Virus record (IMG/VR): IMGVR_UViG_2778261576_000004
Coordinates: 1-41,372 of that record
Direction: 5' to 3' (one strand)
DNA: 41,372 nucleotides
From: a virus
Lineage: Duplodnaviria > Heunggongvirae > Uroviricota > Caudoviricetes
Under the pieces are notes generated by a model. The model searched no databases. It was not told the origin of the DNA and was given only the letters and a program-made list of their open reading frames with translations. Shown here piece after piece: positions 2,796 through 35,103 of the stretch (positions are counted from its first letter, which is position 1; each line of letters opens with the position of its first letter). Both the position numbers and the translations under genes were made by a program.

Positions 2796-3737
2796 TTACA
2801 TAGATGTTTCGTTTAATTCTTCCCGACGAACGCTGTAAACGTCGGTGGCTTTTGCCAGCAGTTCGTCATCATCTGAAAGTTTTTGTGCAATGTATTTGTA
2901 AGCCTTATCCAGTTCGGAGACAGTGCTGTAATTCATCGCTGCGCTGGTAAAGGCCATCAGCATTTCTTCTGGATCACGGCTGTCCGATTTACGCGTTTGC
3001 TCATCAGGCTTTTTCGCTGGTTTAGCGTTGATCAGACTGTTCATTCCCGCAGCAGTGGTCGTTTGCGGAGTAATGTCTCGCTCAACGCGCGGTGCCGTTT
3101 CCTGTAATTCGTCTGGGGTGTAGACGCCCATGATTACGTCAGGACAGTGCAGGCGAGACCAGCGTTTTGTCGCAAGGTATGCGAGTTGTTGTTTCGGATC
3201 ACTGGCCCAAAGTGTGGAGTTTCTTACCTGTGCTTGAGACAGCATTAACTCAAGCACTCGAGGTTGATCCTCGCCCTTCATGGTTGCCCATACGCGAACA
3301 CCGCAGCCTTCTTCGTCTTTTAGAGTCCAGCCTGGTGCGATATATGGATTGCCGTTTTTGGATGTTTTCTCAACAAACTTACCGATCACGCGTTCCCACG
3401 GCCCGAACCACTCGTAGTTGATGCGATCTTTTGTTGGCGACATCGTTGAGATAACTGCGTTTACTAATTGGGCTTCATAACCTAGCGTGCCGTTCACAAC
3501 ATGGGTTTTCTGAGCCACGGCAAACGGGTTCATTCCCCACTGCGCAGCCTGCATTGCCACGGCCATGCAATCAGCTGGTTTCCCGGCGAGGTGCGCCGGT
3601 ACCGTTACGCGGCTTTGCGCCATTACCTCGGCGAATTTCATCAGTTGGTTCAAGCCGTCTGGGCTGAAAATAGTTGCAGCAGTTCCAGCGATTGCTGTGT
3701 CTACTGGTGCGTTGATGTTTGCGATGTCGTTGCTCAT
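2796..3737 (-). CDS. recT: RecT-family single-strand annealing recombinase
   Basis: About 313 aa with RecT-like sequence (NGTLGYEAQLVNAVI..., acidic C-terminus); start at the ATG giving MSNDIANI, overlapping the exonuclease stop (ATGA). Confidence 0.85.
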   Translation of the reverse strand: MSNDIANINAPVDTAIAGTAATIFSPDGLNQLMKFAEVMAQSRVTVPAHLAGKPADCMAVAMQAAQWGMNPFAVAQKTHVVNGTLGYEAQLVNAVISTMSPTKDRINYEWFGPWERVIGKFVEKTSKNGNPYIAPGWTLKDEEGCGVRVWATMKGEDQPRVLELMLSQAQVRNSTLWASDPKQQLAYLATKRWSRLHCPDVIMGVYTPDELQETAPRVERDITPQTTTAAGMNSLINAKPAKKPDEQTRKSDSRDPEEMLMAFTSAAMNYSTVSELDKAYKYIAQKLSDDDELLAKATDVYSVRREELNETSM

Positions 3738-6150: not shown

Positions 6151-6175
6151 AGACCGCCACCCGGCGGTCTTTTCA
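6151..6175 (+). terminator. Rho-independent terminator after the Cro-like gene (tR1-like position)
   Basis: AGACCGCC-ACCC-GGCGGTCT hairpin followed by TTTCAT; immediately followed by a one-mismatch palindrome copy at 6185-6199. Confidence 0.5.
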
Positions 6176-6495: not shown

Positions 6496-7311
6496 ATGAG
6501 CAGACATGCAACAGATTGGGCCTGGGAGACAGATCCAGGTAGCTCATCATTAAAGCTCATACTGCTCTCGATGGCTGACAGAGCCGATGAATATAACCTC
6601 TGCTACCCCAGCATAGAACGCCTCGTTAAAGACACTTGCCTGAATAAAAAAACCGTGCAGGCCGGGCTTATATCGCTCATGAAAATGGGGCTTATTTCAG
6701 ATACCGGAGAGAGAAAGGGAGCGACAAAAAGAGTGCGGGTTTTCTCTCTTAATATAACCAAAAACGGGAACATTAAAGGCAACCGGGAGGGGGGCAATGA
6801 ACCCGAAAACGGTAATGTTACCGAAAACGGGAATATACCCAAAAACGGGATGTTGAATGATCCCAAAAACGGGATGTTGAATGATCCCAAAAACGGGATC
6901 CAGAACCAGTCATATAACCAGTCATTTAACCAAGAGAGGGAGAGCAGGACAAAAACCCGAGGTTCTGTGCCTCATGACCCCGGCGCAAACAACGCCGTGA
7001 TGAATAACTTTGTTCCTCCTGGTGGGCCAGGGCAATTAGGCAAATTTGTCATGCATGAACAATGGCAGCCATCAGATGACTTTCTTCGGAAAAGCTCATT
7101 GCAGGGGATCTACCTGGACAGTCTGCCAACGGCACAGGAACTTGCAGAGTTCAGAATTTACTGGATGGCTGAGGGTAAGGCATACCATCAGGCACAGTGG
7201 GAGCAGAAGCTGGCAAGGCGGCTGCAGATTAGCAGACAGAAGCAATCAACATTACCTGATAACAACGTTCCGCACTGGAACAGCCCTGAAGCATGGGAGG
7301 ATTTCTTGTGA
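6496..7311 (+). CDS. Replication initiator (lambda O-like HTH N-terminus, repeat-rich middle)
   Basis: N-terminal LKLILLSMADRADEYNLCYPSIERL-type winged-helix region common to phage replication initiators; internal DNA iterons; sits directly before the P-like gene. Confidence 0.75.
   Translation: MSRHATDWAWETDPGSSSLKLILLSMADRADEYNLCYPSIERLVKDTCLNKKTVQAGLISLMKMGLISDTGERKGATKRVRVFSLNITKNGNIKGNREGGNEPENGNVTENGNIPKNGMLNDPKNGMLNDPKNGIQNQSYNQSFNQERESRTKTRGSVPHDPGANNAVMNNFVPPGGPGQLGKFVMHEQWQPSDDFLRKSSLQGIYLDSLPTAQELAEFRIYWMAEGKAYHQAQWEQKLARRLQISRQKQSTLPDNNVPHWNSPEAWEDFL
6758..6901 (+). repeat. Iteron-like direct repeats inside the O-like gene (putative ori)
   Basis: About six spaced copies of CC(A/G)AAAACGG(G/T)A, including two identical 24-bp units CCCAAAAACGGGATGTTGAATGAT at 6838-6861 and 6862-6885. 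Confidence 0.55.
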
Positions 7312-8093
7312 ACAACGTTTTTACCGCGATACAAAACCGTGACGGAGAAGCCCTTTCTCGCATGTCAGGTTATGAGCATCAGTACGTCAACAATGACAAT
7401 GTGGTGAACATGTCAGCAGAGAGGCTTGTTGATGCCCTTTTCAAACAGCTGAAACAACTGTTTCCGGCGGCAGTGGTAACCAACCTGAAGACGCCAGAGC
7501 AGGAAGTCGCTGCAAAACAGCAGTGGATTGCTGCGTTTGCCGAAGGGGGGATCCGAACCCGTGAACAGGTTTCTGCTGGTATGCGCCACGCCCGCGCCAG
7601 TGAATCTCCGTTCTGGCCGTCGCCTGGGCAATTCATCAAGTGGTGTAAAGACAGCAAGATGGTTCTTGGCGTCACCATTGATGATGTGATGGCGGAGTTT
7701 AACCGGTACAGCAAGGAAAAAAGTTTATATCCTGGTGGTCCCGAAAGATTCCCGTGGCGACATCCGGTTATGTACTGGGTCGTATGTGATACCCGCCGTG
7801 CAATGTATCAGCGCCAGCTTAGCGAGATTGAGGTTGAGAAACACGCGCGCAGGCTGCTCGATGATTGGGCGAAAAAGGTGGCTTCCGGACAGCAGATACC
7901 CGATCCGGTGATCAGCATACAGGCAAAGCCAGAACCCATGAGTACACCTCCGGACACAGGGAGAGACGTTTACCATCCACCAGGGCGAAGTTTCGGGTGC
8001 ATGCCTAACGCCGCCACCCTTGGTGGAATAACACCGGCGCAGTGGCTGATGGAGGAATACAGGCGAGGAAAGGCGGCAGGATTTATCAAGTAA
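7293..8093 (+). CDS. Replication protein P-like (DnaB helicase loader)
   Basis: Colinear similarity to lambda P as recalled: ...FPAAVV...QQWIAAFAEGGIRTREQVSAGMRHARASESPFWPSPGQFIKWCK matches the P motif ...RQWVLAFRENGITTMEQVNAGMRVARRQNRPFLPSPGQFVAWCR. Confidence 0.8.
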   Translation: MGGFLVNNVFTAIQNRDGEALSRMSGYEHQYVNNDNVVNMSAERLVDALFKQLKQLFPAAVVTNLKTPEQEVAAKQQWIAAFAEGGIRTREQVSAGMRHARASESPFWPSPGQFIKWCKDSKMVLGVTIDDVMAEFNRYSKEKSLYPGGPERFPWRHPVMYWVVCDTRRAMYQRQLSEIEVEKHARRLLDDWAKKVASGQQIPDPVISIQAKPEPMSTPPDTGRDVYHPPGRSFGCMPNAATLGGITPAQWLMEEYRRGKAAGFIK

Positions 8094-16686: not shown

Positions 16687-16763
16687 TGGCGTGGCATGCA
16701 GGATTCGAACCTGCGACCAACCGCTTAGAAGGCGGTTGCTCTGTCCGACTGAGCTAATGCCAC
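16687..16763 (-). tRNA. tRNA-Arg (anticodon UCU)
   Basis: Minus strand folds by hand into a cloverleaf: acceptor GTGGCAT/ATGCCAC, D-arm GCTC/GAGC, anticodon stem ACCGC/GCGGT with loop CTTCTAA, T-arm GCAGG-TTCGAAT-CCTGC, encoded CCA. Confidence 0.85.
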
Positions 16764-34786: not shown

Positions 34787-35103
34787 GATGGCGTCTCCAC
34801 TTAGCGAATTACATCACCACCGCTGAGACCAATCAGATGGTGGTGAACTGAACGGAGTTGGTCTTACCGGCCTAAGTGGTACCGGCGTCCTTTCGGACCC
34901 CCATTCAGCCCACCATAATTCTGGCATGACTGTGCTATACGCATAAAAAAACCACGTCTGGCGTGGTATGCGCCACTTAGTAATCCGGGAGACCAATCCC
35001 GGCACTGGATTTTGCCAGTGCCCGATTACTATGGCACAAGAGGAGTGCGATGTAAATTTACCGCAAAGGTAAATATAAGCACTCCTTTTGGTAATTGCAA
35101 ACC
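34787..35103 (-). other. Structured non-coding leader/spacer with intrinsic terminator
   Basis: Several perfect hairpins (e.g. CCGGGA-GACCAA-TCCCGG, CACTGG-ATTTTG-CCAGTG), a minus-strand terminator (CCACG-CCAGA-CGTGG then T7) near 34943-34964, and a palindrome copy (35058-35072) nested in an 8-bp stem (AGGAGTGC/GCACTCCT). Confidence 0.4.

Follow-up and report, generated by a model that had tools for sequence, protein, structure and literature searches.

Six iteron-like repeats inside the replication initiator gene of a phiV10-like phage probably mark a lambda-type origin

The location of a replication origin inside the gene of its own initiator is a textbook principle, and RepA_N plasmids of Firmicutes (for example those with pSK41-type RepA, PDB 4pql/5kbj) carry iterons inside the rep coding sequence. 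In phage lambda, the iterons and an AT-rich tract are located in the middle of gene O; the iterons number four in lambda and six in Stx phages, they are bent, and the O protein also binds A/T-rich single strands (PMC7466680). The lambda record NC_001416 annotates iterons of the sequence ATCCCTCAAAACGAGGGA and variants of it, with starts 20, 24 and 23 nucleotides (nt) apart, and an A-rich tract after them, all in the middle of O and upstream of P. An earlier note on the DNA studied here had built on an analogy with this layout, an origin within O containing iterons, and both sources confirm the layout. Here, we present an analysis of a repeat array in the replication initiator gene of IMG/VR record IMGVR_UViG_2778261576_000004, which is 41,372 nt long and is called the window in its entirety. 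The window represents an E. coli phage of the phiV10 type. We consider that the repeats are binding sites of the initiator and mark a replication origin of the lambda type inside the initiator gene, and assign this a probability of about 0.8. As the best explanation of the data, the origin region would span positions 6758–6956, in the linker-coding part of the gene, and the array is a further case of the in-gene principle.

The array is composed of six exact matches to the pattern CCRAAAACGGKA, all on the + strand, with starts at 6758, 6803, 6821, 6839, 6863 and 6887. The iterons and the tandem that holds the last three of them are:

6758–6769, + strand: iteron 1, CCAAAAACGGGA (sequence reading, pattern search)
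6803–6814, + strand: iteron 2, CCGAAAACGGTA (sequence reading, pattern search)
6821–6832, + strand: iteron 3, CCGAAAACGGGA (sequence reading, pattern search)
6839–6850, + strand: iteron 4, CCAAAAACGGGA, with flanks ACCC...GGGAT (pattern search, Tandem Repeats Finder)
6863–6874, + strand: iteron 5, CCAAAAACGGGA, with dyad arms ATCCC/GGGAT and a GATC site at 6859–6862 (pattern search, Tandem Repeats Finder)
6883–6900, + strand: iteron 6 with its full dyad, GATCCCAAAAACGGGATC, core at 6887–6898, GATC sites at 6883–6886 and 6897–6900
6838–6899, + strand: perfect 24-bp tandem of 2.6 units holding iterons 4–6, which expands and contracts in the population (Tandem Repeats Finder)

The earlier note had claimed about six spaced copies in the initiator gene, and this number is far from chance, as dinucleotide-preserving shuffling of the sequence yields a mean of 0.59 matches and a maximum of two. 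Elsewhere in the window, the pattern has just one copy, at 3350, with one mismatch. The iteron starts are 45, 18, 18, 24 and 24 nt apart, each a multiple of 3. Apart from the one 45-bp gap, the spacing is 18–24 bp, and the array is in the middle of the gene, as expected of an origin of the lambda type, which should have at least four direct repeats of about 18–20 bp with internal dyads at intervals of about 20 bp. Dyad arms of 5–6 bp bracket each of iterons 4, 5 and 6. Tandem Repeats Finder also detects an 18-bp array at 6801–6850. The identical tandem 24-bp units of the earlier note do form a perfect tandem, but the units contain three cores and not two. The array (6758–6898) encodes amino acids 88–135, at the start of the linker, and is located between the regions coding for the DNA-binding N-terminal and the partner-binding C-terminal parts of the initiator.

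The number of iterons varies from three to nine among 86 phiV10-like loci as units of 18 or 24 bp are gained or lost, and 60 of the 86 share the arrangement of the window. The lengths of E. coli initiators, 271–311 amino acids, mirror the iteron copy number, which accounts for the variable length of the initiator gene in E. coli genomes. The polymorphism of three to nine units is comparable to the difference between four iterons in lambda and six in Stx phages. Near-identical phiV10-type relatives were used for copy-number variation only; phiV10, EC.W1-9, PAS61 and 80 IMG/VR contigs are 96–100% identical and uninformative on conservation.

The six cores are in one frame of the open reading frame 6496–7311 and are read as T/P-K/E-N-G, in agreement with the earlier claim that the repeats encode an NG-rich peptide. 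It is conceivable that the repeats have been selected as protein only, as a disordered P/T-K/E-N-G linker, and that the DNA repeats are a by-product of recent slippage. The common frame of the six copies, with spacings that are all multiples of 3, fits this reading, as do the predicted disorder of the linker and the last units, which form a perfect recent tandem whose copy number drifts in the population. We nevertheless regard selection on the protein alone as very unlikely, since the analysis of reading frames in relatives, described below, largely refutes it.

The set of relatives was obtained by searching species-representative genomes with an alignment of amino acids 1–87 only, from which the repeats were left out. 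The search identified 80 loci in Enterobacterales, Vibrio, Pseudoalteromonas, Marinomonas, Acinetobacter, Wohlfahrtiimonas, and Beta-, Alpha- and Delta-proteobacteria. De novo repeat finding in the 400 nt past the domain revealed 4–11 copies of a related 12-mer in almost every locus, compared with 1–3 copies in upstream control stretches. In 83 non-redundant loci, the strict core CC[AG]AAAACGG has 140 copies on the coding strand in the 32.8 kb just downstream of the domain; outside this zone, four copies are present on the same strand and three on the other (263.6 kb overall). The earlier note had named a lack of conservation in related genes as the observation that would speak against an origin, and the opposite was found, as nearly all loci keep the core in place.

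The 140 strict cores are distributed over the three codon phases as 102, 27 and 11, and more than one reading frame is used in 25 of the 35 loci in which the strict core occurs at least twice. A copy in phage GF-2, aCC CAA AAA CGG, is read as TQKR, a copy in H20, CCA AAA ACG G, as PKT, and copies elsewhere as PKNG. In an independent, protein-only set of 115 cluster representatives, the three frame read-outs occur 242, 67 and 39 times in linkers and 0, 2 and 0 times elsewhere. Inverted copies of the core, such as CCCGTTTTTTCC, are present in several arrays. Radical residue changes in relatives, from N to I, F or Y, still preserve the pattern CCC-W6-GGG, and the spacers diverge while the cores remain constant. 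Rare codons are fixed at synonymous sites: in the cores of the window, CCC is used in four of four proline codons and GGG in five of six glycine codons, against shares of 9% and 15% in the 31 other long open reading frames of the window. The use of three frames, the inverted copies and the rare codons in the cores therefore indicate a constraint on the DNA sequence. The repeat DNA is conserved apart from coding and is specific to the initiator lineage, and the NG-rich peptide is a by-product of the DNA constraint.

The initiator can be divided into three parts, as seen in its gene and in the regions coding for the terminal domains:

6496–7311, + strand: replication initiator gene, 271 amino acids, with winged helix, disordered linker and DnaT-like domain (open reading frame, Pfam, PHROG, AlphaFold2)
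6496–6756, + strand: region coding for the N-terminal winged helix, amino acids 1–87, the presumed iteron binder (AlphaFold2, Foldseek, Pfam)
7045–7251, + strand: region coding for the DnaT-like C-terminal domain, amino acids 184–252, binding single-stranded DNA (PF17948, PDB matches)

The initiator contains the Pfam domain HTH_36 at amino acids 18–67 and DnaT (PF17948) at 184–252 (E = 1e-15), and matches PHROG 1032, 'replication initiation protein', with E = 2e-108. The AlphaFold2 model, built on an alignment of 115 diverse sequences, has a confident winged helix at amino acids 1–88, composed of four helices and a β-hairpin wing (predicted local distance difference test score 87–98), a low-confidence and presumably disordered segment at 91–181, and a helical C-terminal domain at 190–251. 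A Foldseek search of the N-terminal domain against the PDB returned generic winged-helix DNA binders only, none at E ≤ 1e-3. The C-terminal 70–85 residues match the chains of the E. coli DnaT C-terminal domain in the PDB (4ou6, 4ou7, 6aep and 9zbt) with E of about 1e-20. The initiator is a winged-helix/DnaT-like chimera and no orthologue of lambda O. The label 'O-like gene' of the earlier note calls for a qualification: the domains are HTH_36 and DnaT-like instead of Phage_rep_O, and the protein is a remote relative of O at best.

The N-terminal domain is represented by 547 clusters at 50% identity (E ≤ 1e-10) and is always in the N-terminal position. Relatives that share only this domain were found by tblastn in Edwardsiella phage GF-2, Vibrio H20, Acinetobacter AP22 and enterobacterial PPompW. 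All four have arrays at the same position, with cores formed by CC(C), an A/T-rich hexamer and GG(G); GF-2 contains three copies of ATCCCAAAATTGGGAT and H20 five of CCGAAAACGGTAC. The C-terminal half of the GF-2 protein is of the lambda O type with a P gene next to it, and the partner in AP22 is a DnaB-like helicase. The Uetakevirus phages SPN1S and Tyrion, which share only the DnaT-like domain and have unrelated N-terminal parts, are without a comparable repeat array. Because GF-2, H20, AP22 and PPompW possess the array and SPN1S and Tyrion do not, the array goes with the N-terminal domain and does not depend on the type of C-terminus. A DnaT-like C-terminus is present in just 16 of 115 diverse members.

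The repeat sequence changes together with the domain. The Acinetobacter clade with a 7-residue N-terminal insertion has the motif CCAA[CT]AA[CT]GG; in the clade whose wing is shortened, the motif is CCAAAAGTGG, and a GC-rich repeat is present in a member whose wing is divergent. The residues conserved in the family are located in the recognition helix and wing (K52, T53 and D69-T70-G71-x-R73). The repeats are thus real, non-random, constrained at the DNA level, and co-inherited and co-varying with the N-terminal domain. In the simplest reading of these alignments, the N-terminal domain of the initiator itself would be the repeat binder.

This co-variation bears on the possibility that the array is bound by some other protein, such as a host factor, repressor or partition protein, and serves another process, such as centromere function, packaging or phase-variable expression. 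Three GATC (Dam) sites at 6859–6900 overlap the arms of iterons 5 and 6 and are the densest such cluster of the window (3 in 60 bp versus 154 in 41 kb), which could attract Dam or SeqA, and TubR-type centromere binders are among the weak fold matches. However, the motif is tied to the initiator N-terminus and co-varies with it across Vibrio, Acinetobacter, Sulfuricella and Sphingomonadales, the overlap of GATC sites with iterons is not kept outside enterobacterial relatives and is missing from many relatives, for example Vibrio H20, and there are no partition genes among the open reading frames neighboring the array. We consider a different binder extremely improbable. The GATC cluster could tie initiation to methylation or SeqA.

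A position matrix drawn from 333 iteron sites contains additional conserved AA at positions −7 and −6, which gives a full unit of about (G)AAYAn(T)(C)CC-A-AAAA-C-GG(G)(A). The modes of iteron spacing across the family are 17/18 and 23/24 nt. Downstream of the array, the window contains a second conserved element and a purine-rich run:

6902–6937, + strand: three tandem 12-nt GAAYC units, AGAACCAGTCAT / ATAACCAGTCAT / TTAACCAAGAGA, about 62% AT (Tandem Repeats Finder, family conservation)
6932–6956, + strand: purine-rich run AAGAGAGGGAGAGCAGGACAAAAAC, at the place of the A-rich tract of lambda (AT skew)

Tandem Repeats Finder reports the 12-bp tandem AACCAGTCATAT at 6904–6932, directly past the array. 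After the last iteron of each locus had been located by chained matches, at least two [AGT]AAYC units were found within the following 48 nt in 46 of 67 loci (exactly three in 32) and in none of the controls. Most loci scored as lacking the element have variant last iterons that were missed by the pattern. The first unit starts exactly 6 nt past the last core in 43 loci, and the units are spaced by 12 nt (41 cases), 13 nt (26) or 11 nt (8). They occur in two codon phases, 70 and 57 times; therefore, the second element is also constrained at the DNA level. In sequence, the GAAYC units are similar to the iteron unit in its 5' half (GAAYnnnCC). The AT skew over 6900–6959 is 0.56, an A-rich run comes after the 12/13-mers in many relatives, and the family has a modest AT/purine peak 40–50 nt past the last iteron (0.68 versus about 0.55). 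We hypothesize that the block 6902–6956 is a candidate unwinding or helicase-entry zone. The adjacent AT-rich unwinding element that the earlier note had asked for may have a counterpart in the conserved 12/13-mers at 6902–6937, but the AT richness there is only moderate.

Several weaker repeat-like sequences surround these elements. The sequence CCGGGAGGGG at 6783–6792, inside the 45-bp gap, is a possible decayed core copy; it and CAAAAACCCGAGG at about 6950–6962 (CAAAAAACGGGGAT in relatives) are too weak to be counted as iterons. Most close relatives have an additional degenerate iteron-like sequence, ACAAAAAACGGGGAT, about 50 bp past the array and beyond the 12-mers (alignment columns about 265–280), where the window reads ACAAAAACCCGAGG at 6946–6962. 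Single-strand folding of 6740–6970 is not unusual (z = −1.16), and Rfam contains no RNA family matching the iteron region. Terminator-like matches on the minus strand within the array are by-products of neighboring iteron arms and the A-tract and are not regarded as functional. An antisense open reading frame of 95 amino acids (6603–6890, − strand) crosses the array and encodes a repetitive FNIPFLGS peptide; it almost certainly results from the repeats and is no gene.

The iterons are followed by a gene for a helicase loader, which overlaps the end of the initiator gene:

7293–8093, + strand: lambda-P-like helicase loader gene (PF06992, E = 2e-56; PHROG 109, 'P-like helicase loader')

A gene of the lambda P type is thus adjacent to the initiator gene, upstream of which lie a Cro-like gene and, on the other strand, the gene of a CI-like repressor. 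The order of repressor, Cro, initiator and P is that of a lambda-like early right operon. Within this operon, the N-terminal winged helix (amino acids 1–87) would bind the six iterons, probably as dimers, with arms TCCC/GGGA forming a dyad about the A-tract of each iteron. The bent nucleoprotein complex formed in this way may stress the adjoining three 12-mers and purine-rich run (6902–6956). The DnaT-like C-terminal domain might then bind the exposed single strand, recruit the P-like loader carrying host DnaB, or both, and early rightward transcription would pass through the site. Binding, bending, unwinding, helicase loading and origin activity are steps that we infer from the arrangement of the locus.

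It is also possible that the repeats are true initiator sites with mainly regulatory roles, in autoregulation, in titration or handcuffing, or as a transcription roadblock, while replication starts elsewhere. Plasmid iterons act in both initiation and copy control, and the moderate AT content of the flank and the host-factor sites missing near the array (see below) fit such roles. However, the window lacks a second cluster of the motif, with the one-mismatch copy at 3350 only, and there is almost none in the flanks of relatives; moreover, the conserved 12/13-mers at a fixed offset of 6 nt, often with an A-rich run, correspond to an origin in their arrangement. A further argument against a mainly regulatory role, which we judge unlikely, is a plasmid record of about 8.5 kb that carries just the module of initiator, iterons and P-like gene. 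This record, NZ_CP148379.1, is an 8,461-bp circular E. coli plasmid with a repressor, a Cro-like gene, YdaT, a homologous iteron-bearing initiator and a P-like gene, and it has no replication gene beyond the initiator and the P-like gene. Its layout is that of the lambda-dv plasmid. Its immunity region is that of a cryptic prophage, and hokD, rem and defence-like genes are present as well; a similar record, NZ_CP130688.1, is linear and comes from Klebsiella.

The following points weigh against an initiator-bound origin at this locus. The six copies in the window share a single frame, and the frame argument depends on relatives. The flank is only moderately AT-rich, with 62% AT at 6902–6937 and 42–47% GC in 60-nt windows, and a consensus scan near the array found no DnaA box or IHF site. 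NZ_CP148379.1 could be an assembly artefact. The initiator does not match Pfam PF04492, Phage_rep_O, which lambda O itself matches at 6e-36, and a direct profile comparison with the lambda O N-terminus (hhalign) gave a probability of 12.6%, too weak for homology. Full-text searches of a literature collection thin in older phage work yielded no report of binding or origin activity in this initiator family. The proposal of a lambda-style origin with initiator-bound iterons is nevertheless supported by the conservation of the core, its independence of frame and orientation, and its co-inheritance with the N-terminal domain.

The initiator gene is 96–99% identical to that of phiV10 and other E. 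coli Uetakevirus phages (megablast). The phiV10 RefSeq record NC_007804.2 has terminators marked nearby and no origin or repeat feature over the initiator gene. A strong hairpin resembling an intrinsic terminator, AGACCGCCACCCGGCGGTCT with a T-run after it, is located at 6151–6170 (+ strand), in the interval that separates the Cro-like gene from the genes that lead up to the initiator, at the position of lambda tR1, and carries a terminator annotation in phiV10.

Some database records of this locus are irregular. In CP025713.1 (phage YDC107_2, locus 400–1016), the initiator gene is broken by one-base changes of A-runs in the iterons (A5 to A6), and a 'putative membrane protein' is annotated on the opposite strand; this is probably a homopolymer sequencing error with misannotation. 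A complete phiV10-type immunity/replication module is present at the end of the 138-kb Vequintavirus record PP488543.1 (phage BP9, 133.4–137.2 kb), and such a module is also found in the 115-kb phage record PP350014.1 (PH444), labelled 'UNVERIFIED_ORG'. Both cases probably result from chimeric assembly. Elsewhere in the window, Rfam detects on the − strand a C4 antisense RNA (34836–34920) beside an isrK Hfq-binding RNA (34945–35021), a pair that looks like a P1/P7-style antisense immunity element. A tRNA gene at 16690–16763 (− strand; 73 bits in Rfam) could be phage-borne, or a host tRNA marking one end of a prophage.

The analysis locates the probable origin of phages of the phiV10/Uetakevirus type, which is unannotated over this gene in NC_007804.2. 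Searches of the literature, with thin coverage of older phage work, revealed no account of this iteron family. New here are a family-wide rule for finding origins, a DNA site that constrains coding sequence, and the conserved 12/13-mer element. According to the rule, CC-W6-GG repeats are located just past the HTH_36 domain and are followed by GAAYC 12/13-mers; with 547 clusters of the domain, it is applicable to hundreds of prophage lineages. It may be useful for phage-derived replicons and for predicting the replication incompatibility of co-resident prophages. The array is a plain example of a coding sequence constrained by a DNA-binding site and not by the protein product.

We speculate, with considerable doubt, that the winged helix, iterons and fixed-offset GAAYC trio are one ancient portable origin cassette with interchangeable helicase-recruiting C-termini, and that this cassette has reached four or more classes of Proteobacteria. 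In that case, the 12/13-mers would be a new sequence-specific element for unwinding or single-stranded DNA binding, read by the initiator itself and comparable to the 13-mers of oriC, DnaA-trios and the repeats of plasmid DNA unwinding elements. If this is true, the near-identity of the core to the lambda iteron would place lambda O in the same recognition lineage.

The locus resembles the RepA_N plasmids in having a winged-helix N-terminus that would bind in-gene iterons and a separate C-terminal domain for host interactions. It differs from them in host phyla and replication partners, the scans found no match to the RepA_N Pfam domain at E ≤ 1, and RepA N-terminal structures are among the fold matches with E = 0.02–0.04, no better than generic MarR/Fur winged helices. 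E. coli DnaT shares only the C-terminal three-helix domain that binds single-stranded DNA and has no counterpart to the winged helix or the iteron linker; the full-length DnaT model NF002770 scores 84.9 bits against a cut-off of 201 and covers amino acids 181–264 only. Many records nevertheless annotate the gene as DnaT. Because only the C-terminal domain is common, the names 'primosomal protein I' and 'DnaT' that phage records give to it are misleading, and the label 'primosomal protein DnaT' is corrected here.

Compared with lambda O, the initiator has HTH_36 instead of Phage_rep_O at its N-terminus and a DnaT-like instead of a lambda-O-type C-terminal domain. The iteron is 2–3 bp shorter than in lambda, and the flank is formed by three conserved, moderately AT-rich 12/13-mers. 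The N-termini of both initiators match PHROG 678 and 345 in overlapping profile regions, and a remote kinship between them is plausible from these profile matches. As in lambda and Stx phages, the array is located in the linker-coding middle of the initiator gene, and the iteron number differs between relatives. As in lambda, direct repeats of about 18–20 bp have dyad arms and an A-tract, with a spacing of 18–24 bp here and 20–24 in lambda, the promoter-distal flank of the array has a stretch rich in A or purines, the N-terminal domain is the DNA binder (presumed here), and a loader gene of the P family comes next. The core ATCCC-AAAAAC-GGGAT resembles the lambda iteron, with TCCC...AAAAC...GGGA in common.

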